Below, in pieces: positions 4,619 to 64,000 of a stretch of 64,000 nt of DNA (positions within the stretch are counted from its first letter, which is position 1; every line of letters starts with the position of its first letter). This DNA is from a virus, in the IMG/VR virus record IMGVR_UViG_3300045131_002463, positions 34,050 through 98,049 of that record, one strand, 5' to 3'. A model generated the notes under the pieces. The model was not told the origin of the DNA. It searched no databases and saw only the letters and a list, made by a program, of their open reading frames with translations. The translations under genes were made by a program, and so were the position numbers.

Positions 4619-4647
4619 ACTATACCACATTTTTAAAAGCTTGTCAA
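4619..4647 (-). promoter_or_regulatory. strong sigma70 promoter of Y RNA/Ro60 operon
   Basis: TTGACA-AGCTTTTAAAAATGTGG-TATAGT (17-nt spacer, TG extension). Confidence 0.8.
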
Positions 4648-4655
4648 GCTTTTTC

Positions 4656-4670
4656 TGCAATCAATTGCAA
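4656..4670. promoter_or_regulatory. palindromic site copy 2
   Basis: TGCAATCAATTGCAA just upstream of the -35. Confidence 0.6.
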
Positions 4671-29692: not shown

Positions 29693-29794
29693 AAATATAT
29701 TAAAGTAATTACCTACATACTTAATACTAAACATATTAATTGATATCTTTTAAGTATGTAGCCCGACTTATAATTAGTATTGGAGGTTAGTAAT

Positions 29795-32389
29795 ATGACG
29801 CTTGGCGCAGCCAGAGTAATATGGAGAATAAACGATCTTAGCCTATTTGTAGATGAAGTGGTTCGCGGGTATGTAACCATGGTCATCAAGGCAGAGCGTG
29901 GAGAGATGGGAAAAGCCCGTATCATCTCTACCATGGAGGAATACAGAAGACGATATGGAAAGAAAGTATCGTGGACGACTGATCCACTGGTAGTTGAAAT
30001 GGCGCTGAGACAAGGCGCTAGACTTAATCTTATTAGAACTGCTCATTATATGGATCCTGCAGATCCTACTACAATAACTGCAACAAAATCTGAATTGACT
30101 CTTTATGATAGGGGAGACACTGCTAACGTAGCTGTTATAGAAAGTGAAGTGGGTCCTTTTGGATTTACTCAGAAATTATCAGGCAGATTCCTGGGAACAG
30201 AAGTAGGACCTTTTACTTTTGAAACAGGTGTTTCTGATAAACTTTCTTTTACAGTTAATGGTGGTACAGCGCAGGAGTTAACCCTTACTGGTACTCTTAC
30301 TACGCAGGCAGTTGCAGATTATATTAATGCACATACAACTGGTATGACAGCTATGGCTGTATATGATGAAGGTAGTGGTCTATACGTACTTAAAGTTTTT
30401 GCTAACACTATTACTCATTCCTTAGGTGTAATTACTATTACGCATTCGGCTTATGAGCTTTTGGGCCTTCCTCTTACTACTACCACTGCTACGGCAGAAA
30501 CAGGAACAGATAATGTAATTCTTACAGTAGATGGTGGGTCTCAGCAATCTCTAACGCTTCTTCCTATTGCTGGAGAAGAAGGGGAATTTACTCTTACTAC
30601 GGGCCAAGTGGTTCAAAGAATGCAAGCCTTTGAGGACGTAGTAGTATACGCAAATGACAACAAAGTAAGAATAGAGACACTGTCTTCTGGAGCAGAAGCC
30701 ACTCTCCAGTTTGTAACTAGTACAGGACTAACTGTTCTTGGTTTCGATACCGACGAAGTAGCTGGTACTGAAGAAGGATCAGTTCAGCCTACTCTTAAAA
30801 TTATCGCTCTTAATGAGGGTGATTGGGGAGACGATCTTAAAGTTATAGTTACAAATTCTCTCTTGCACGAAGATCTATATTTTAACCTTAGAATTATAAA
30901 TGATAGACAAGGCGATATGGAAGAATACTATGCCGATATGTCTATGGATTCTGATAGTGAACGCTATGTAGTGAATTTTCTTGCAGATCAATCCTTTCTA
31001 GTAGAGGTAGTGGATCTACATTCACCTACTGCCGATCCTCTTAATATGCCAGCTACAAATAGCACAGGCAGTTATCTACATGGCGGATCGAATGGTATAG
31101 ACCAGCAGGGCGGTTATTTTGTAGGGAGTGAACTAGGGCCTTTTACCTTCGTTACTGGCACTGATGATAAGATGTCACTTCAGGTTGGATCAGACGTAGC
31201 TATGGATATAACTCTTTCAGGGTCTGCTAAAACTCTTGCAGAAGTAGTTATCCAACTTAATGATGCTCTTACAGGAGCAACTGCAACAGCATACAACAAT
31301 AGACTTAGAATTGAGGCTAATGATGTAGCAGATAATTTGCATCTTCTTGCTGTTGATAAAGACTGTTATACAGTTCTTGGGCTTACTGCTGACACTTATC
31401 TAGCTAATGATGGATTCGATGATGCAGACTGGATAGGAGACGCAGCCGCGCAGACTGGTATTTACGCTGCAGATATGACGTATATGTCAATGGACCTTAT
31501 GGTTCCTGGAACAATATCAGCCACAGTGTATAATGCTATGATTACCTATTGTGAGAATCGTGGTGATATGATGAGTTATGGTGCAACGCCTCCAGGTAAT
31601 GATCCTGAGGATACAGTTGCATGGAGAATGGGAACTGGTAATTATACGCACCCGGCATTCAATAGTCACAGATTTTCTATGTGGTTCGGTAGACCATTGG
31701 TTTTCGATGATAGAGATTCTGCTAAAAGATATATCCCTAATCTAGGACATTTGGCTGCTTGTCTTTGTCGTACAGACAATGATTATGGATCACATTATGC
31801 TCCAGTAGGCCCGAGAAGAGGCGCTGTTCAGCTAGTTGAAGGCATTGACTTTAATATTCAGGACTACAGATCTACTGGTTATGCAGATCTTTTTGCTGAA
31901 TATGGCATTAACTATTTGATGATATCAAAGATGCCTGGAATAGAAGGCGCAATGTTCTGGGAACAAAGGACCTCACAAAGAGCTCCTTCTGCTACTCGTG
32001 AACTAAACGTTATGAGGTTTATCACTGTAGTAAATAGAACTCTTATGCCTATATTAAGAACGTTCCTATTTGAACCTAACCATCCAGTTACGTGGAGGGA
32101 AATTCATAGGGTACTACAACCTGCATTTGATAGCTGGAAAAACAAATATGCCATCTATGACTACTGCCTACAGACAGATCGCGATGCTTTCTTCGATGGC
32201 GGAGAATTAAAGAATGCTGTTCTCAACAGCGGACTAGACATTGATCGCGGCTTGTATAGGTGTCGTGCGTTGATTCAGCCTACTAGGGCTATATACTACT
32301 TGGAGTTCGAGCTCGGTGTGATGCGGACGGGCGAGAGCTTTGAGAACTATAAGTCAATGAAATATCTTCCAGGTTGGATAAGATCATAA
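29795..32389 (+). CDS. contractile tail sheath protein
   Basis: ALNEGDWG, TGIYA, YCENRGD, ELNVMR, FLFEPN, IQPTRAIYYL; start at MTLG behind GGAGG. Confidence 0.88.
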   Translation: MTLGAARVIWRINDLSLFVDEVVRGYVTMVIKAERGEMGKARIISTMEEYRRRYGKKVSWTTDPLVVEMALRQGARLNLIRTAHYMDPADPTTITATKSELTLYDRGDTANVAVIESEVGPFGFTQKLSGRFLGTEVGPFTFETGVSDKLSFTVNGGTAQELTLTGTLTTQAVADYINAHTTGMTAMAVYDEGSGLYVLKVFANTITHSLGVITITHSAYELLGLPLTTTTATAETGTDNVILTVDGGSQQSLTLLPIAGEEGEFTLTTGQVVQRMQAFEDVVVYANDNKVRIETLSSGAEATLQFVTSTGLTVLGFDTDEVAGTEEGSVQPTLKIIALNEGDWGDDLKVIVTNSLLHEDLYFNLRIINDRQGDMEEYYADMSMDSDSERYVVNFLADQSFLVEVVDLHSPTADPLNMPATNSTGSYLHGGSNGIDQQGGYFVGSELGPFTFVTGTDDKMSLQVGSDVAMDITLSGSAKTLAEVVIQLNDALTGATATAYNNRLRIEANDVADNLHLLAVDKDCYTVLGLTADTYLANDGFDDADWIGDAAAQTGIYAADMTYMSMDLMVPGTISATVYNAMITYCENRGDMMSYGATPPGNDPEDTVAWRMGTGNYTHPAFNSHRFSMWFGRPLVFDDRDSAKRYIPNLGHLAACLCRTDNDYGSHYAPVGPRRGAVQLVEGIDFNIQDYRSTGYADLFAEYGINYLMISKMPGIEGAMFWEQRTSQRAPSATRELNVMRFITVVNRTLMPILRTFLFEPNHPVTWREIHRVLQPAFDSWKNKYAIYDYCLQTDRDAFFDGGELKNAVLNSGLDIDRGLYRCRALIQPTRAIYYLEFELGVMRTGESFENYKSMKYLPGWIRS

Positions 32390-33263: not shown

Positions 33264-33546
33264 TAAGAAAACTTTAGAAGATGTAGCACAGATGCTTATT
33301 AAATATGGAAGCGTTACAGATTCCTTGAGTAATCTTAAATCTTGCGGGGAGGGATTACAGGAGATTCTAGAGAGTGCCCTGGATTTTAATTCTGTACTGC
33401 TTACTGATTTTCTTGAAGTACAAGGAATGAAGCAAGCTATGCTAGAAATATTGGACATGCTTGTGTTTTACAATAATACCCCTACGATTATAGCAGCTAA
33501 GGCAGATGGATTAAGAGAAACTTTAATGAAGGAGAATAGAGAATGA
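33247..33546 (+). CDS. hypothetical protein
   Basis: Helical ORF; start uncertain (GTG). Confidence 0.5.
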   Translation: MKIVVDKKTLEDVAQMLIKYGSVTDSLSNLKSCGEGLQEILESALDFNSVLLTDFLEVQGMKQAMLEILDMLVFYNNTPTIIAAKADGLRETLMKENRE

Positions 33547-33968
33547 GAAAGATTTTAGTGTTAGTAGTGTCCTTATTGATGTTTACCGTTTCATACGCGC
33601 AGGTGAAACCTCAAGGTGAAACTTTGAATTTTCCCGCTTTTAAATTTCCTAATAATTCCGCGTATCAAAGTAAGATTAGACGCGCGCAGGAACCTGAGAA
33701 GAAGGTATCAGTTAACAGGCTTCCTCAGCAGCGAGATTTCGCGCCTAGAAAACAAATAAGAAAAACGTATAGACCTCAGCAGGTTTATTACTATCAGAAT
33801 TATTCACAGCCTGTGTATGACCCTTGTTCTTACAGCTACTGTCAGCAGCAATACCCATGGGTTAGTACTCCTCAACGTCAACTTCCTATATGCGTTTCTG
33901 CTGTGCAGCGAGTGTGCGTTTTTCCTTTCGATGTGCTCTCGCTGCTATTCGGGGGAGGAGACTGGTAA
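33543..33968 (+). CDS. secreted/membrane hypothetical protein
   Basis: Signal peptide MRKILVLVVSLLMFTVSYA. Confidence 0.6.
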   Translation: MRKILVLVVSLLMFTVSYAQVKPQGETLNFPAFKFPNNSAYQSKIRRAQEPEKKVSVNRLPQQRDFAPRKQIRKTYRPQQVYYYQNYSQPVYDPCSYSYCQQQYPWVSTPQRQLPICVSAVQRVCVFPFDVLSLLFGGGDW

Positions 33969-34031
33969 TTAATTGCACCTAATTATCAAGTGTTACTTCA
34001 AGAAAAAAATGCAACCTTTTGATCTTTTTAC

Positions 34032-34060
34032 TTGACATAGCTTATAGAGGGAAGTATACT
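34032..34060 (+). promoter_or_regulatory. sigma70 promoter
   Basis: TTGACA-N17-TATACT. Confidence 0.75.
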
Positions 34061-34065
34061 GTATT

Positions 34066-34139
34066 TACCTTCCCTAGAAGGTTCATTTTTTTTTCTCCTT
34101 TCCTCGAAAAGGCTGCTGGGTTCTCCATCAGCCTTTTTT
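34066..34139 (+). ncRNA. candidate small RNA/attenuator with anti-SD/anti-AUG tract
   Basis: Between promoter and AAAAGGCUG/CAGCCUUUUUU terminator; contains CAU-U8-CUCCUUUCC. Confidence 0.45.
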
Positions 34140-34165
34140 GTTAATAATAATCCCAAGGAGGATTT

Positions 34166-34549
34166 ATGGGACTCTTTAATTTTTTTAGTATGAATAGTAG
34201 TCAGCAGTCAATGCAGGCGGAGATGAATCAGAATATGTTGAGTGCTCTTCAGGATCAACTATCAAAAACTACTTGACCTACAGCGCGCAATCAGTTGATT
34301 GCTCAAATAAACAACCTACAACAGCAGATGGCACAGAAGCCCCCTCAGGCGCAACCTCAGCCCCAAGTAGTAAATACTGCTCCTGTACAGGCATCAATTG
34401 CTCAGACACAGCCACAGGCATTTCAGACCCCTCCTGGTGGATTGTCCCAGCAACAGAAGATGACTCTGGATGATATGGCTAATGAAATAACTTCTATTAG
34501 AATTGCTTTGAGTAGTATGGAATTAGCTATTAAAAAATTGAAGCAATAA
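34166..34549 (+). pseudogene. Q-rich ORF interrupted by in-frame TGA (pseudogene or readthrough)
   Basis: AAGGAGG-ATG at 34166, TGA at 34274-34276, same frame continues to TAA at 34549. Confidence 0.55.
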
Positions 34550-34574
34550 TTTAATAAGGGAAAGAGAAATTAAA

Positions 34575-34997
34575 ATGGAGAGAATGGATTTTTATATTTA
34601 TGGCACAGGATCTACGCAGGGATTTGATGTCAATGGAACATGTGAATACTTTGATATTGATAGTGAGATGCGCGCCATAAGAAAGGAGTGGAAGCGTAAT
34701 GAAGTGGTATCTATGTTCGCTCTTACTCCCGGTCGTAAAAAAATACCTAAAGACCTTATAAAATATTTTGAAGAAAAGCCCGAGCATTCAGGTAATCTCA
34801 CTTTGCGTAAAATGCAATTTGAAGGAAACCCAATCTTCCCGGAAGATAATGTGGGCTTAAGGTATAATATTTCATTAGGTGAGTATATGTTTACTAAAAG
34901 TATGATGATTAGAATGCACTTATACAGTGAAGATGGGCAGGATTATATTGATATGGAATTTGCTCTTTCTTACGTCACATGGCGCGATAAAAAATAA
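34575..34997 (+). CDS. hypothetical protein
   Basis: 140-aa ORF in island. Confidence 0.6.
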   Translation: MERMDFYIYGTGSTQGFDVNGTCEYFDIDSEMRAIRKEWKRNEVVSMFALTPGRKKIPKDLIKYFEEKPEHSGNLTLRKMQFEGNPIFPEDNVGLRYNISLGEYMFTKSMMIRMHLYSEDGQDYIDMEFALSYVTWRDKK

Positions 34998-35015
34998 TTT
35001 GCAATCAATTGCAAA
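34998..35015. promoter_or_regulatory. palindromic site copy 6
   Basis: TTTGCAATCAATTGCAAA, 7 bp upstream of -35. Confidence 0.65.
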
Positions 35016-35022
35016 AAAAAGC

Positions 35023-35051
35023 TTGACTTTTATCTAAAGCTGTGGTAGACT
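35023..35051 (+). promoter_or_regulatory. sigma70 promoter of ncRNA cassette
   Basis: TTGACT-N17-TAGACT with TGTGG. Confidence 0.72.
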
Positions 35052-35056
35052 AGGTT

Positions 35057-35340
35057 TAAATTAGTTCACTGGGTAAAGGCTGCGCTCATAACTAATTCTT
35101 CTATAGCATAAAATCTCCTTCGACTATTAACCCAGCAGCCATTCCTTTGAAATTACAGTTTGGCTATTGCTTGGCTAGAATCTTATGTATTTCATGTTGA
35201 AACTCCTTTTTTATTAATATAAAAAAAGCAGTAGCCACTTTATTCGACTTAGACGACCAAATTTCGCAAATATTTCATTTAACAAAAAGGAAATCCTTGG
35301 TCGTCGAGGAGAGCGCGCTTAAAACCCGCGCTCTTTTTTT
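35057..35340 (+). ncRNA. candidate multi-stem-loop antisense sRNA cassette
   Basis: No long ORF; three stem-enclosed loops with CAU/CUCCUU motifs; ends in terminator. Confidence 0.55.
35310..35340 (+). terminator. intrinsic terminator
   Basis: AGAGCGCG/CGCGCTCT + T-run. Confidence 0.8.
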
Positions 35341-35560
35341 ATTTTATTTCCTAACTCTTCCAATAATTTCCTACCAAAAATCTAATCAATACAAACAATT
35401 AGCTTGCATTAAATAAACATATACATTTATAATATGTAATAATTATTGTTGGCGGAATTTTTACATCTCCGTCTAGATTTAAATTGTTAATTTAATTAGT
35501 AAATTAGTTTTTCATTGGAGAAGTGCACACTCCAAAATAATTGATAGGAGGTAGGAATAT

Positions 35561-36040
35561 ATGCCTACGACAGCTTGTGCGATACCGCGGTTAAAAGATT
35601 TTAAATATCGTGTTGAAATTAATGGACTCGAGGCAGCTCTTGTACAAGAGTTTGAGCCTGGAACAAGAACGCATGGGGTTACCGTTCATAATGGCGCGGG
35701 CCAGAACCACGTATGTAAGGAAGTCGGAATGATCGGTTTCTCTAACTGCGTTCTAAGGACTGTTGTTCCTGTAGATGGTGAAATGCGTAACTACTGGGAA
35801 TTCTGGTTGGACCAAGCGCAGGATCCTACTACTGGTAACGGTGGAATGCCTGCCAAATATCAGAGGAACTTCAGCGTGTTCGAGCTAGCTCCTGACGGGT
35901 CACCTTCAAGAGTTTATGAATATTTTAAAGGGTTTCCTGTATCCTTCAAAGTCAACGCCAAGTCTTCTTTGGACGACAGTACCGATGTTTTAGAATTCGT
36001 TGAGATAGCTTACAATCGTCGTGAAATAAGAGTACTGTAA
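35561..36040 (+). CDS. tail tube protein (T4 gp19-like)
   Basis: FKYRVEING, FSNCVLR, YQRNFSV, YKGFPV-like; size and synteny. Confidence 0.8.
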   Translation: MPTTACAIPRLKDFKYRVEINGLEAALVQEFEPGTRTHGVTVHNGAGQNHVCKEVGMIGFSNCVLRTVVPVDGEMRNYWEFWLDQAQDPTTGNGGMPAKYQRNFSVFELAPDGSPSRVYEYFKGFPVSFKVNAKSSLDDSTDVLEFVEIAYNRREIRVL

Positions 36041-36264: not shown

Positions 36265-36972
36265 ATGGAACTTATCACTACGGAAGTTACCACCCCTTTA
36301 TCTGGTAAAATTTTCAAGATCAAAGAAGGAGATGGGTACACAGAACGGCTTTTGCTTAAGAAGGGCAAGAGGCTGCATCAGGTTATTCCTGATTACCTAG
36401 CTTCTCTTCTTGTTGAAATGGATGGTAATCCTTGCAAGACCTCGGATGTGCTTCAGTTTCTTGTACCTGATTATGAATTTCTGCTTATAGAAGCCTACAA
36501 AAATTCATTTGGAGATGATCTTACATTTGTCAATGTATGCTCTAATTGTGGGCAGATGAATAATCATACTGTTAATTTGTCTGAGCTTCCTATGATTGAG
36601 CTTTCAGAAAATTGTACAGGCGGGACTGATCCTATAATTGATCTGGTGTTGCCTAGAACTAAGTTGAGGGCGCGCGTTGGTTTTCTCACTGTGCAGAATG
36701 ATATGATTCTTAACGAACAGATGAGCGGACAAGGTTCTGTAGATTTAAATCAGGGTGATTATCTTTCATTGCGCATGCTTGAAGGATGTGATCCAGTGTC
36801 TTATGAAGATGTAGTGAAGTTGCCCTTGATGGATCATAAAGCTATTAGAAAAGCACGTCGAGAGTTGATAGCCGGGTATGATCCTCTTGTATCTCTTGTC
36901 TGCGAATCCTGTGGAAACTATGACGTAACGAACATTCTTGGTTTGCGTGATTTTTTATTTCCGAGCGGCTAG
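36265..36972 (+). CDS. tail assembly chaperone (T4 gp26-like, two CxxC)
   Basis: CSNCG, LPRT, CESCG, DFLFP; precedes tape measure. Confidence 0.72.
   Translation: MELITTEVTTPLSGKIFKIKEGDGYTERLLLKKGKRLHQVIPDYLASLLVEMDGNPCKTSDVLQFLVPDYEFLLIEAYKNSFGDDLTFVNVCSNCGQMNNHTVNLSELPMIELSENCTGGTDPIIDLVLPRTKLRARVGFLTVQNDMILNEQMSGQGSVDLNQGDYLSLRMLEGCDPVSYEDVVKLPLMDHKAIRKARRELIAGYDPLVSLVCESCGNYDVTNILGLRDFLFPSG
36951..36957 (+). other. programmed -1 frameshift slippery site
   Basis: T TTT TTA; the -1 frame is open into ATG 36984. Confidence 0.7.
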
Positions 36973-59693: not shown

Positions 59694-59950
59694 TGTCAGG
59701 AAAATATTATCCAGGGGGAAAGGCTAGCGTTAGCTTTGGTCCGGGAGTTGCTGCTTGTCCTAAAGAGCAAGCAACTGCTTTTGATATGATAGATCCAGCG
59801 TGCTGGAAAGTATTTGGGGCTGGTATAGTAATAGCTGGGAGCGGTAACAGTGTTCAAGGTGGATTTGAGATATTTAATTTTAACGTTCATAATGATGGGA
59901 CTTCTAGAGCCGTCCCTACTGTTTTAGATCTAGAGGGGACAGTAGCATAA
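59693..59950 (+). CDS. small protein, triplet paralog 3
   Basis: CW..SVQGGFEIFNFNVH..GT. Confidence 0.6.
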   Translation: MSGKYYPGGKASVSFGPGVAACPKEQATAFDMIDPACWKVFGAGIVIAGSGNSVQGGFEIFNFNVHNDGTSRAVPTVLDLEGTVA

Positions 59951-62900
59951 TGCCCTTTGATGAATCGTTAGTAGATAAAGGTAGTTGGTTTTATGATACC
60001 AGTGATGGTTCCACTCCTCCCCCAGTAGGAGATGGTGTTACCTATTCTCGTGCCCTGGGCTGGCAGTCCCCGGAGGGAAACTTTTATGGACAGGAGAGAT
60101 GGGTTAGAGATTGGTATTCTGCAGTTTTTTGGGACGGAGAAGAGTATAAAATATTTGAAATTGACGGGGAGGCCGATTCTCCTGAGTTATTGCCTATTCC
60201 TGGAGAAATTAATCCTAGAACTGGAGAACCTTATGGGTCTCGTAGCTCTTTTGAAATGTGGGCTACCCCAAGATTGAATTGGCCCCCAGAAGATTTAACA
60301 ATATATGATGGGCGTAGCAAGGAGTACTGGTGGTGGGATGTTGATACACAAGAATGGAAAATAATAGAGTGGTACTGGACCTGTGACGGAGAAGATGAGC
60401 TTCCTCTTCCGGGAATTAAGAGAGGATCGGCACATATAATAATTTATCCAGATGTAAAGGTAATGTGGAATGGGTATGTTTGGAAAAGGTATTCCATAGA
60501 TATGTTAGATGGGGGAGAGCGTGTTGATGGGTTAGAGGGATTAACAGAGCTTACTACAGGACAGGTTACACAACTACAAGGTGATCATAATAATTTATTG
60601 GCTTCTTATTTAGGTAATACAGATACAGGAGATGAGGAATTAGACGGTGCAGCTGAAGCTAATTTAGCAATGGTTAATACATTAAACGCCATGTCTGATC
60701 ACGGGTGGATTACTTTAGCAGAAGCACTTGAGTTAAAGAAACACCTAGCAGATATTATAGCTGAATCTGAATCTTTAATTTTTATTGCTAATGCTTTAGA
60801 AGAAGCAGTAGAGGACTTAGATTTATCTTCAGAAATAAGTAATTATGATTCAGCGGTAACTCAATTAACTCTGGCTCTTAATAGTTGGATAAATGCATCA
60901 GCTTATCCGGTGGAAATAACTGGTACAGTAACAACAAGAGAGACTTTAGACGCTAGAATAGCAACTGTAGTATCAACACGAGAATTGTTAAGAACTGCAA
61001 CCCAAAGTGCAAATATTAGTTATGTTGATGCGCAGACAATCCAATTAAACGAGTCAATCAATACCCTTTCTGGAAATGTAGATACTTGGTTTTCTGATGC
61101 TGTTATTACTTATATAGAGGCTAGCTCCCTTAAGACGTCGCTAATACAGGTTAATTCAGAATCTATTGATATTATAGCAGTGGCAGAGTCTCTACTAGTC
61201 TCAGCTGTAACAGTTTCTGCCTACACACAAGCACTGGACTATTTAGATACAGCCCTTGACTTATTTATAGATAAGACATCATATCCTATAGAAATCACTT
61301 CTCAGCAACGAGTAGATATCACTGAAGCCCTTGCGGAAGTTCAGGCTACAAAGACTTTATTATCTATAGCTATAGAAGAAAAGAGAACTCAGACTGCAAT
61401 TGAATATATAGATCAGCAAGTGGGTGAGTTAGATTCTGCGTTTGCTAGTATGGCAGCAAATATTGTAGACTGGACGGTAGATTTATCTGTGAGTTCGTCC
61501 GAGTCAGACTCCTTAGAGATTAGCATGATAGCGGTGCAGTCCCAGGCAAGTGATTTGGAAGCAATTGCCTCTAGTCTTGCTCCTGTCCCAGAAACCTCCC
61601 CTGTAAGTTCCATTACTGCTGCAAAGACAGCTTTTTCTGATTCCTTATCCGCCTTATTTGTTTTACTTAATCCTTATATAAATCAACAATCTTATCCTAT
61701 TGAGATAACACAAAACGATAAGGATACAATAGTAATTGCATTAAATGACACTCGTTCTAAAAAGTTACTTCTAGAAGATGCAATTAGTTCTACAAGAATA
61801 ACTAATATTTATGATTACGTAGATGATCAAATTGGAGAGGTTAACACCGCCGTAGGAGACTTAGGCGATGAGTTAGCGCTAGCTTCTAATGATAGCTATA
61901 TCACGCTAGCAGAGGCTAACGAAATTAAGCGCCATAAGGCGCAGCTTGACGCTGAATCTACAGACATAATTGCAATAGCCGCAGGCTTGGCTCCGGTCCC
62001 TGAGACAGACCCAATAAGTGCTATTACTACCAAGAAATTAGCATATTCCGCTTCGCTTACAGCGCTAACAAATGCGCTAGCAAGCTGGATCACTAATGTT
62101 ACATATCCTCTGGAAATTACAGGACAAGTCACAACAAAAGTTGCGATGAGCACAGCTCTTGCTAATGTGAAGATAGCGCAGGCGGCGCTCACAAAAGAAA
62201 TTCAAGCCTCTAACGTGGGTTACGTAGACGATCAAATTGGAGAAGTTAACACAGCCGTAGGAGATTTAGGAGATGAGTTAGCGCTAGCTTCCAATGATAG
62301 CTATATCACGCTAGCAGAGGCTAACGAAATTAAGCGCCATAAAGCGCAGCTTGACGCTGAGTCTACCGATATAATTGCAATAGCCACAGGCTTAGCTCCG
62401 GTCCCCGAGACAGACCCCGTAAGTGCTATCACCACTAAGAAATTAGCATATTCAGCTTCGCTTACCGCGCTAACTAATGCGCTAGCAAGTTGGATCACCA
62501 ACGTTACGTATCCTCTGGAAATTACAGGACAAGTTACAACAAAAAGCACTATGAGTGCAGTGTTAGCTAATGTGAAGATAGCGCAGGCGGCGCTCACAAA
62601 AGAAATTCAAGCCTCTAACGTGGGTTACGTAGACGATCAAATTGGAGAAGTTAACACAGCCGTAGGAGATTTAGGAGATGAGTTAGCGCTAGCTTCCAAT
62701 GATAGCTATATCACGCTAGCAGAGGCTAACGAAATTAAGCGCCATAAAGCGCAGCTTGACGCTGAGTCTACCGATATAATTGCAATAGCCACAGGCTTAG
62801 CTCCGGTCCCCGAGACAGACCCCGTAAGTGCTATCACCACTAAGAAATTAGCATATTCCGCTTCGCTTACAGCGCTAACAAATGCGCTAGCAAGTTGGAT

Positions 62901-64000
62901 CACCAACGTTACGTATCCTCTGGAAATTGCAGGACAAGTCACAACAAAAGTTGCGATGAGCACAGCTCTTGCTAACGTGAAGATAGCGCAAGCAGCGCTC
63001 ACAAAAGAAATTCAAGCCTCTAACGTGGATTACGTAGATGATCAAATTGGAGAGGTTAACACCGCCGTAGGAGACTTAGGCGATGAGTTAGCGCTAGCTT
63101 CTAATGATAGCTATATCACGCTAGCAGAGGCTAACGAAATTAAGCGCCATAAGGCGCAGCTTGACGCTGAATCTACAGACATAATTGCAATAGCGGTGAG
63201 TCTAGCTCCGGTGCCTGAGACAGACCCAGTTAGTGCTATTACTACCAAGAAATTAGCATATTCCGCTTCGCTTACAGCGCTAACAAATGCGCTAGCAAGT
63301 TGGATCACCAACGTTACGTATCCTCTGGAAATTACAGGACAAGTTACAACAAAAAGCACTATGAGTGCAGTGTTAGCTAATGTGAAGATAGCGCAGGCGG
63401 CGCTCACAAAAGAAATTCAAGCCTCTAACGTGGGTTACGTAGACGATCAAATTGGAGAAGTTAACACAGCCGTAGGAGATTTAGGAGATGAGTTAGCGCT
63501 AGCTTCCAATGATAGCTATATCACGCTAGCAGAGGCTAACGAAATTAAGCGCCATAAAGCGCAGCTTGACGCTGAGTCTACCGATATAATTGCAATAGCC
63601 ACAGGCTTAGCTCCGGTCCCCGAGACAGACCCCGTAAGTGCTATCACCACTAAGAAATTAGCATATTCCGCTTCGCTTACAGCGCTAACAAATGCGCTAG
63701 CAAGTTGGATCACCAACGTTACGTATCCTCTGGAAATTGCAGGACAAGTCACAACAAAAGTTGCGATGAGCACAGCTCTTGCTAACGTGAAGATAGCGCA
63801 AGCAGCGCTCACAAAAGAAATTCAAGCCTCTAACGTGGATTACGTAGATGATCAAATTGGAGAGGTTAACACCGCCGTAGGAGACTTAGGCGATGAGTTA
63901 GCGCTAGCTTCTAATGATAGCTATATCACGCTAGCAGAGGCTAACGAAATTAAGCGCCATAAGGCGCAGCTTGACGCTGAATCTACAGACATAATTGCAA
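59950..64000 (+). CDS. giant repetitive helical protein, probably tail-associated (3' truncated by window)
   Basis: Read manually from ATG 59950 (MPFDESLVDKGSW...); the parts read are stop-free to the window end (~1350 aa); absent from ORF track. Confidence 0.8.
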   Translation, partial: MPFDESLVDKGSWFYDTSDGSTPPPVGDGVTYSRALGWQSPEGNFYGQERWVRDWYSAVFWDGEEYKIFEIDGEADSPELLPIPGEINPRTGEPYGSRSSFEMWATPRLNWPPEDLTIYDGRSKEYWWWDVDTQEWKIIEWYWTCDGEDELPLPGIKRGSAHIIIYPDVKVMWNGYVWKRYSIDMLDGGERVDGLEGLTELTTGQVTQLQGDHNNLLASYLGNTDTGDEELDGAAEANLAMVNTLNAMSDHGWITLAEALELKKHLADIIAESESLIFIANALEEAVEDLDLSSEISNYDSAVTQLTLALNSWINASAYPVEITGTVTTRETLDARIATVVSTRELLRTATQSANISYVDAQTIQLNESINTLSGNVDTWFSDAVITYIEASSLKTSLIQVNSESIDIIAVAESLLVSAVTVSAYTQALDYLDTALDLFIDKTSYPIEITSQQRVDITEALAEVQATKTLLSIAIEEKRTQTAIEYIDQQVGELDSAFASMAANIVDWTVDLSVSSSESDSLEISMIAVQSQASDLEAIASSLAPVPETSPVSSITAAKTAFSDSLSALFVLLNPYINQQSYPIEITQNDKDTIVIALNDTRSKKLLLEDAISSTRITNIYDYVDDQIGEVNTAVGDLGDELALASNDSYITLAEANEIKRHKAQLDAESTDIIAIAAGLAPVPETDPISAITTKKLAYSASLTALTNALASWITNVTYPLEITGQVTTKVAMSTALANVKIAQAALTKEIQASNVGYVDDQIGEVNTAVGDLGDELALASNDSYITLAEANEIKRHKAQLDAESTDIIAIATGLAPVPETDPVSAITTKKLAYSASLTALTNALASWITNVTYPLEITGQVTTKSTMSAVLANVKIAQAALTKEIQASNVGYVDDQIGEVNTAVGDLGDELALASNDSYITLAEANEIKRHKAQLDAESTDIIAIATGLAPVPETDPVSAITTKKLAYSASLTALTNALASWITNVTYPLEIAGQVTTKVAMSTALANVKIAQAALTKEIQASNVDYVDDQIGEVNTAVGDLGDELALASNDSYITLAEANEIKRHKAQLDAESTDIIAIAVSLAPVPETDPVSAITTKKLAYSASLTALTNALASWITNVTYPLEITGQVTTKSTMSAVLANVKIAQAALTKEIQASNVGYVDDQIGEVNTAVGDLGDELALASNDSYITLAEANEIKRHKAQLDAESTDIIAIATGLAPVPETDPVSAITTKKLAYSASLTALTNALASWITNVTYPLEIAGQVTTKVAMSTALANVKIAQAALTKEIQASNVDYVDDQIGEVNTAVGDLGDELALASNDSYITLAEANEIKRHKAQLDAESTDIIA
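61816..64000 (+). repeat. 405-bp (135-aa) tandem repeat, about 5.4 copies
   Basis: Units start TACGTAGA(T/C)GATCAAATTGG at 61816, 62221, 62626, 63031, 63436, 63841. Confidence 0.95.

Follow-up and report, generated by a model that had tools for sequence, protein, structure and literature searches.

Introduction

RNAs that combine an anti-Shine-Dalgarno (anti-SD) sequence with an anti-AUG are already known. The streptococcal csRNAs (cia-dependent small RNAs) contain an unpaired region with an anti-SD and an anti-start codon, with CAU present in 53/61 (PMC3091779). They occur as several paralogues and have been proposed to block translation initiation regions (PMC3091779). The phage locus described here, which we term the array unit, is like the csRNAs in being a predicted small non-coding RNA with an anti-SD and CAU that are predicted to be unpaired. 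However, a csRNA is a single two-hairpin RNA that is transcribed from the bacterial chromosome under a CiaR promoter of its own, whereas the cassettes of the array unit would be chained in one transcript. Furthermore, the anti-start segment of a csRNA is located between hairpins and not inside a large loop as in the array unit, and the csRNAs are without cassette exchange at the level of strains.

Other systems share individual properties with this locus. RNAIII of Staphylococcus aureus is a multi-hairpin RNA in which exposed pyrimidine-rich loops pair with the Shine-Dalgarno regions of several messages. This architecture is shared with the array unit, where such pairing is predicted, but RNAIII is not phage-borne; it is a peptide-encoding RNA of 514 nt with a UCCC motif, it acts in the quorum-sensing regulon of the cell and its architecture is fixed. 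In phages P1 and P7, the c4 antisense RNA, studied by Citron and Schuster in 1990, reportedly acts in trans by pairing with a phage message at its ribosome-binding region. The specificity of c4 depends on minor differences in the loops among related phages. This RNA is about 77 nt long, is processed from the operon of its own target and controls one gene (ant) in the immunity of a temperate phage. Thus, c4 is like the array unit a phage RNA directed against a ribosome-binding region, the latter by prediction, but it is a single RNA with one target gene.

To our knowledge, early-gene shut-off in large lytic phages is detailed for very few models, and there it occurs via proteins. For example, RegB and RegA of phage T4 bring about a class-wide shut-off of early translation by recognizing Shine-Dalgarno and start regions, with RegB cutting at GGAG. 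This is the task that we propose for the array unit, except that the effector is a protein in T4 and would be an RNA here. Control of early T4 messages by proteins is the subject of a review (PMC3014915).

In this study we analyze a window of 64,000 nucleotides, corresponding to bases 34050-98049 of a 98,049-bp IMG/VR virus record with an estimated completeness of 79%. Window coordinates count from record base 34050, and coordinates prefixed with G000 refer to the whole 98-kb record. The array unit differs from the known anti-SD and anti-AUG RNAs by its standard stem scaffold and its strain-variable cassettes; the tag that its loops mirror is an extended canonical SD. In searches of the literature we did not encounter any account of a hairpin-cassette array that varies among strains, and a fixed scaffold in which cassette number and content vary among strains of the same lakes is unusual for bacterial and phage regulatory RNAs. 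The array unit is a concrete, testable RNA candidate for phage early-gene shut-off.

Results

A non-coding unit between the sheath and tail-tube genes

The source of the window is a contractile-tailed myovirus, and near-identical sequence occurs in runs labelled lake water or freshwater. Tube relatives in GTDB genomes are only 46-47% identical (Desulfomonile and Verrucomicrobiota MAGs) and give no clue to the host. The array unit is located between the sheath and tube genes, with a 140-aa ORF and the tube gene as immediate neighbors (Table 1). Window positions 35058-35340 form an ORF-free unit of about 285 nt that extends from a conserved promoter to a canonical intrinsic terminator, and the promoter sequence places the putative transcription start near 35058. 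An earlier sequence-only reading had described a non-coding promoter-to-terminator unit of hairpin cassettes at this site. That description holds: the promoter, palindrome, stems, motifs and terminator that it listed are all in place, both ends are conserved, and the interior contains no ORF of at least 30 aa other than a TTG frame that begins in the terminator.

Table 1. Positions of the array unit elements, neighboring genes and related features. Positions are window coordinates unless prefixed with G000; promoters, hairpins and terminators are predicted.
Feature	Position	Strand	Description
Early array	about first 10.3 kb of genome, given also as G000:3200-11450, before window	-	eleven cassettes; locus L040
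Palindrome TTGCAATYRATTGCAA sites	514, 4657, 15737, 19850, 29435, 34999, 36085, 46438; G000 4147, 15812, 20216		
Sheath gene	29780-32389		phrog_23
Companion short RNA unit	34032-34139	+	consensus promoter 34032-34060, 5' hairpin, terminator hairpin 34115-34139
ORF, 140 aa	34575-34997		function unassigned; left neighbor of array unit
16-bp palindrome TTGCAATCAATTGCAA	35003-35018		operator-like; just 5' of -35 box
Sigma-70-type promoter	35023-35051	+	TTGACT-17-TAGACT, extended -10 (TG)
Hairpin cassette 1	35071-35147	+	core stem GGCUGC/GCAGCC, 35078-35083 / 35135-35140
Exchangeable cassette (C2 type, hairpin 2)	35156-35244	+	12-bp stem, 35161-35172 / 35226-35237
Hairpin 3	35252-35305	+	9-bp outer stem GACGACCAA/UUGGUCGUC, 35252-35260 / 35297-35305
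Intrinsic terminator	35309-35340	+	GC-rich 12-bp stem, 9-nt loop, U7 tail
Tube-gene promoter, separate	35404-35433	+	TTGCAT-18-TATAAT; from sequence; right boundary of array unit
Tail-tube gene	35561-36040		PF06841 and phrog_45
Baseplate protein gene	36265-36972		

The predicted RNA consists of three hairpins followed by the terminator. The loop of hairpin 1 is about 50 nt long and contains CAU (35107-35109) and CUCCUU (35115-35120). The exchangeable C2 cassette has a 5' flank CAGUU, a 53-nt loop with CAU (35193-35195) and CUCCUU (35203-35208), and a 3' flank CUUUAUU; its anti-start core reads UUUCAU-GUUGAAA-CUCCUUUUUU (35190-35213). Hairpin 3 has an inner AUUUC/GGAAAU extension and UAUUUCAU in its loop, and contains no anti-SD. 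The plus-strand fold of the unit (z = -3.2) is more stable than all 200 dinucleotide shuffles. There is no tRNA match in the unit and no Rfam 15 covariance model reached its gathering score in the window; at E <=10 on 33990-35570 the best hits scored 15-23 bits against thresholds of 36-97, and none of them was csRNA or C4. Proteins encoded by the neighboring genes have no Pfam, PHROG, PADLOC or ESM Atlas match.

Metatranscriptome contigs from three freshwater runs of one study span 35072-35254, and one such RNA-library contig continues from the upstream gene. As strand and ends are not given and DNA carry-over is possible, these contigs indicate presence of the region only. The segment from the terminator to the tube promoter (35327-35413) is uncovered by contigs of the three RNA runs and is bridged by a DNA-run contig, although gaps between contigs prove nothing.

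The leader of the tube gene (35440-35560) is 120 nt long with two hairpins, and contains a 9-nt string, AAATTAGTT, that is also present at the 5' end of the ncRNA.

Stem covariation and cassette variation among related phages

The array unit occupies the same locus in three relatives: L001, an IMG/VR contig of 103 kb (genome G001) with a tube protein that is 83% identical, and L007 and L008, two metagenome contigs that are identical in this region. L001 and L007 retain both promoter hexamers, with substitutions in the spacer, and the terminator is identical in the window, L001 and L007. Hairpin 3 and the terminator (35239-35340) constitute the most conserved part of the unit, at 100% identity in L001 and 99% in L007 as compared with 81-94% for all flanking segments, which places this module above the neighboring genes. 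The loop of hairpin 1 is also kept in the relatives, save for a 7-nt patch that shifts the CAU. An RNAalifold consensus of hairpin 1 contains 12 pairs, two of which have compensatory double changes (G-C to C-G and C-G to U-A), and its core stem changes from GGCUGC/GCAGCC to GGGCGC/GCGCCC among the relatives.

The middle cassettes behave differently from these fixed parts, with one cassette in the window, two others in L001 and again two others in L007. These five paralogous cassettes from three phages have in common a 5' flank CAGUU, a stem of 10-12 bp and a 3' flank (C/A)UUUAUU. Their stems are 93% paired, versus 23-59% when the partner strand is slid, and three pairs are altered on both sides; one pair appears as U-A, U.G and C-G and another as G-C and A-U. 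The sequence-only reading had proposed that relatives be checked for conserved stems with variable loops, and this is what L001 and L007/L008 contain. Two wobble pairs in the stems, U.G in the window cassette and G.U in the second cassette of L007, would turn into C-A mismatches in a minus-strand RNA. The terminator stem also has no U-run after it on the minus strand and there is no leftward promoter, so that together with the wobble pairs the plus strand is settled as far as sequence can settle it. Judged by predicted structure and conservation, the unit is a genuine RNA gene of the phage that is both conserved and structured.

In runs X19 and X12, contig ends show the cassette of the window after the linker that trails the first cassette of L001; therefore further cassette combinations exist. 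L007 and L008 are identical over 3,616 bases, from the array into the tube gene, and then diverge sharply, with tubes that are 97% versus 83% identical to that of the window. The pair is thus mosaic through recombination, and the breakpoint lies within the tube gene.

A C2 covariance model (R1) and motif scans detected no cassette outside of this locus in the 98-kb and 103-kb genomes, and the cassette covariance model found no copy in more distant relatives. About 14 closer tube relatives (74-94% identical) are known. In tube relatives that are 35-55% identical the array is absent, with mostly coding sequence up to the tube gene and, in two cases, an unrelated upstream gene. Exact scans of IMG/VR, run with hairpin 3, three loop cores, the element of the early array and the pattern of the cassette, returned only the relative G001 or chance matches in coding sequence, and searches of cultured phages with the unit gave no match or matches at chance level only.

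Several known types of element were considered and set aside. A type III toxin-antitoxin (ToxI-like) array does not fit, as there are no direct repeats within 35000-35360, the relatives repeat only stems and flanks, the gene that follows encodes the tail tube (PF06841), and the neighbors have no PADLOC match. A CRISPR mini-array or RNA anti-CRISPR was rejected because the constant parts are inverted, forming the two arms of a hairpin, and are not direct repeats; this comparison covered the layout of the repeats. A miniature inverted-repeat mobile element was likewise rejected: the cassette is present at this locus only, with the same ends around differing interiors.

Loops that mirror translation starts

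The sequence-only reading had claimed that the loops display anti-SD and anti-AUG sequences, and this is borne out statistically. CTCCTT is present in four of seven distinct loops where 0.09 is expected, and 20,000 shuffles never reached this count. An arrangement of CAT and, 4-10 nt further on, an anti-SD 4-mer, which is the reverse complement of SD-spacer-AUG, is also found in 4/7 loops versus 0.33 expected (P = 1.5e-4). Sense-strand controls for these motifs gave zero. The CUCCUU motifs in the loops are predicted to be mostly unpaired, with probabilities of 0.55-1.0 overall and of 0.86-1.0 for hairpin 1.

Alignment of the middle loops with MAFFT shows that four of the five share the core CAU-n-UUGA-nn-(C)UCCUUU, which is the mirror of AAAGGAG-nn-UCAA-n-AUG, while the other parts of the loops cannot be aligned. 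The anti-SD is weak in the second cassette of L007, and the first cassette of L001 has no CAU. Retention of the core in otherwise diverged paralogues argues for selection on the core and against neutral debris. When the mirror is read as a gene start, in-frame stops directly follow several of the apparent anti-AUGs; consequently, pairing with real gene starts would not be perfect throughout.

Two properties expected of a trans-acting small RNA that occludes ribosome-binding sites are thus present at this locus. It is an independent non-coding unit with promoter and terminator conserved in relatives, and by computation it has an accessible seed that could pair with the SD and the start codon of messages encoded elsewhere.

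The AAAGGAG tag of the early genes

The genome begins with an array of early genes organized in cassettes of their own. Each early cassette contains an invariant 25-nt element, CTAGGACCCCGGCTCCGCCACCCCG, which has no exact match elsewhere in IMG/VR, followed by a promoter close to consensus and by between one and three small genes. The leader AACAGTTGAGAATAC...AAAAGGAGA is common to these cassettes, and the tag (A)AAAGGAGA to their gene starts. AAAGGAG occurs <=22 nt 5' of 20 of the 28 early-array starts versus 2 of the 156 other starts (Fisher 2e-18). This tag is thus almost private to some 28 early genes, an observation that is new here. The spacer TCAA accompanies 4/28 early starts versus 2/156 others, and the full mirror motif A[AG]GGA[GT]-N1-4-T[CT]AA-N-ATG is present genome-wide at only four early genes, besides the cassette itself.

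Pairing predictions also lead to this class. The C2 loop of the window could pair with the start of an 82-aa early gene, G000:9073(-), through 20 Watson-Crick pairs and one G.U pair in 23 nt (-19 to +6), and it could pair in a similar way with the gene at G000:2742. In terms of AUG-anchored mirror identity, the window loop scores 24/37 (to the G000:9073 start) and the first loop of L007 25/37, and the top three matches are all early; the control, in which non-early were set against early starts, had a mean of 18.1 and a 95th percentile of 22. G001, a contig that ends before the early array and serves as a negative control, reached a maximum of 20-22. On computed matches, then, the tag-bearing early class appears to be the best-matching target class for the loops.

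Beyond the tag, complementarity is modest. A blastn-short search of the own genome with all loops gave perfect matches of <=12-13 nt, which is the chance level. Scanning 184 and 168 predicted starts for duplex energy provided only leads. Shuffle controls gave z values of only about -2 to -3; the best cognate pairs, between the window loop and G000:4005(-) and between the second loop of L001 and G001:13598(-), reached only about -2.3 and -3 against shuffles that also destroy the anti-SD, and both genes are strain-specific. Gene G000:22345(-), which has a 9-nt complement (AUGAAAUAC) and, adjacent to it, a 9-nt same-sense match (GGCUAGAAU) to the window loop, was rejected as a target, with an estimated chance of about 0.02 and no mechanism. 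For hairpin 3, which has no anti-SD, no convincing target was found. AAAGGAG is approximately the ideal complement of the 3' tail of bacterial 16S rRNA, and because of this near-ideal fit strong host starts may match the loops as well as early genes do.

A companion short RNA

A second small RNA unit is predicted upstream of the 140-aa ORF, with a promoter and terminator hairpin of its own (Table 1). Its single-stranded stretch, at about 34083-34106, reads UUCAU-U8-CUCCUUUCC. L001 and L007 both retain this unit; their terminator stems show compensatory changes and the U-run varies in length. In the 40 kb of plus-transcribed genome, CTCCTTT occurs only three times on the plus strand; two of these sites are located in the two small RNA units, one of them in the short RNA. 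The sequence-only reading had joined both units in a host-silencing system. Its two-unit aspect stands, since the short RNA carries the same anti-tag CUCCUUUC, while host targets are unsupported.

Two possible partners of the short RNA were rejected. Positions 34111-34122 of the short RNA are complementary over 12 nt to hairpin 1 (35131-35142), but L001 does not retain this match. Pairing of 34083-34106 with the start (33521-33546) of ORF 33543-33968 would comprise 15 Watson-Crick and three G.U pairs in 19, but its spacing is without co-variation: the U-run in relatives (9, 7, 6) does not track the ORF 33543 spacer (8, 7, 7).

A palindrome-linked promoter class

The palindrome next to the array promoter belongs to a motif, TTGCAATYRATTGCAA, of 16-18 bp with about 11 sites in the 98-kb genome (Table 1) plus one divergent copy (window 34287), and with about 17 sites in G001. 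Most copies lie at operon borders, some being 5' of the -35 box and some between -35 and -10, and the palindrome is probably the binding site of a phage regulator. The same layout of palindrome, A-run, GCTTGAC, 17 nt and TGTGGTAnAnT also heads the Y-RNA/Ro60 operon (window 4619-4670, minus strand). As this promoter class differs from the early-array promoters, the RNA is probably in a separately regulated class. Separate regulation would fit a delayed shut-off; however, the sigma-70 promoter of the unit looks early, so that for a shut-off role the timing is something that we infer.

Discussion

Proposed mechanism

We propose that the array unit is a trans-acting array of anti-ribosome-site RNA elements that represses messages of the early class, and we rate the chance that this is correct as about even. 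In this model, host RNA polymerase would transcribe the plus strand at about 35058-35340 from a promoter of the palindrome-flanked class to give an ncRNA of about 285 nt. The transcript would be a chain of hairpin cassettes with a standard stem scaffold and one large, mostly unpaired loop per cassette, each loop offering a mirrored translation start composed of CAU, a spacer and CUCCUU(U). The loops would then pair in trans with the region from the Shine-Dalgarno sequence to the start codon of messages tagged AAAAGGAGA, and so keep 30S subunits off these messages. Since the tag is almost private to the approximately 28 early genes, shutting off or tuning translation of the early class would be the most likely job. 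Hairpin 3 and the terminator may provide an invariant 3' module for stability or protein binding, and the short unit at 34032-34139 may be a second RNA of the same kind.

The same pairing could also hit the equivalent early messages of co-infecting relatives, and strains may swap middle cassettes by recombining within the stems and linkers that these have in common. A more far-reaching version is an RNA-only targeting system in which strains would shuffle exchangeable anti-start guides of about 25 nt by recombination so as to match fast-evolving early genes of the own phage or of rivals, providing both early shut-off and superinfection exclusion with no protein effector. We consider this extension rather unlikely. 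If it is true, the hairpin scaffold (flank, 12-bp stem and linker) would present the guides, and silencing the early genes of co-infecting relatives would amount to a form of RNA-guided exclusion. If the cassettes track hypervariable early genes, they would constitute a modular antisense design that arose in nature, and would offer a way to study what the early genes do.

Alternative explanations

It is unlikely that the unit has no trans function and consists of selfish or accidental palindromic insertions, of inverted remnants of early starts, or of a structured leader or attenuator of the tube gene. Variable cassette number and wholesale loop replacement are consistent with insertions, but the cassette type, unlike a mobile element, is absent elsewhere in both genomes. 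The loops do look like inverted early starts; however, diverged paralogues retain the anti-start core and the stems covary. The tube gene is 220 nt downstream and distant relatives (tube 35-55%) are without the array, but the unit has its own conserved promoter and strong terminator, the tube gene is separately promoted, and hairpin 3 plus the terminator are conserved above the neighboring genes.

It is decidedly unlikely that this RNA acts instead on host messages such as those of defense genes, as the sequence-only reading supposed, with loops that track host diversity and hairpins that are excised by RNase III. The promoter is of the host sigma-70 type and the loops mirror generic strong starts (A-rich, AAGGAG, AUGAA), but stops in frame just past the mirrored AUG show that several loops are not copies of real starts. 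Cassette differences among co-occurring strains are what an arms race would predict, yet a core that fits the early class of the phage itself is common to the variable parts. Excision is made doubtful by stems of 9-12 bp, which are short for RNase III. A 20-nt exact complement was found neither in IMG/VR nor among cultured phages, and 50,697 phage records gave chance-level matches only; the proposed defense-gene targets thus lack support, and the best target class is the phage's own early genes.

Very unlikely is a role as a mimic of the 16S rRNA 3' tail (CUCCUUUC), in which the RNA would be a decoy or sponge for a tail-recognizing protein or nuclease, or a competitor for strong SD sequences, and in which the flanking sequences would be irrelevant. 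Each RNA does have several copies of the conserved CUCCUUU(C/U), mostly unpaired, and the poly-U spacer of the short RNA would pair with any purine-rich spacer, but the CAU and the UUGA spacer are kept in register with the anti-SD, which is needless for a mimic. Genes linked to RNA repair are abundant in the phage (the window contains Ro60, Y-like RNAs and tRNAs), yet no candidate binding protein is encoded nearby, the neighbors being without Pfam, PHROG or PADLOC match.

We give hardly any credence to a functional minus strand with exposed ribosome-binding sites and minigenes that trap ribosomes or tRNAs, comparable to the bar minigenes of phage lambda, for although most loops read on that strand give SD-N5-9-AUG and two contain two-codon minigenes (AUG CUA UAG and AUG CAA UGA), no promoter-like site is directed leftward into the unit, the terminator is functional and the two stem wobbles fit on the plus strand only, one cassette is without AUG, and the micro-ORFs, whose expression would have counted against the sequence-only reading, are unlikely products as they are 2-22 codons long, mutually unrelated and not conserved in length or sequence.

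Additional observations

Upstream of the array unit, window 34166-34549 contains a 127-codon Gln-rich frame that is broken by an in-frame TGA (34274-34276), which L001 and L007 retain. This TGA is part of CTTGAC and is followed by a palindrome-like sequence, GCAATCAGTTGATTGC, that is invariant in the window, L001 and L007. This region could represent a pair of genes between which a promoter and an operator are located, or a case of programmed read-through.

A 27-nt string, ATAATTGCAATAGCCACAGGCTTAGCT, has GCAATAGCCAC in common with a cassette stem, probably by chance. The string is present in three exact copies (window 62381, 62786 and 63596) inside the large gene 59950-63999, which indicates repeated protein modules.
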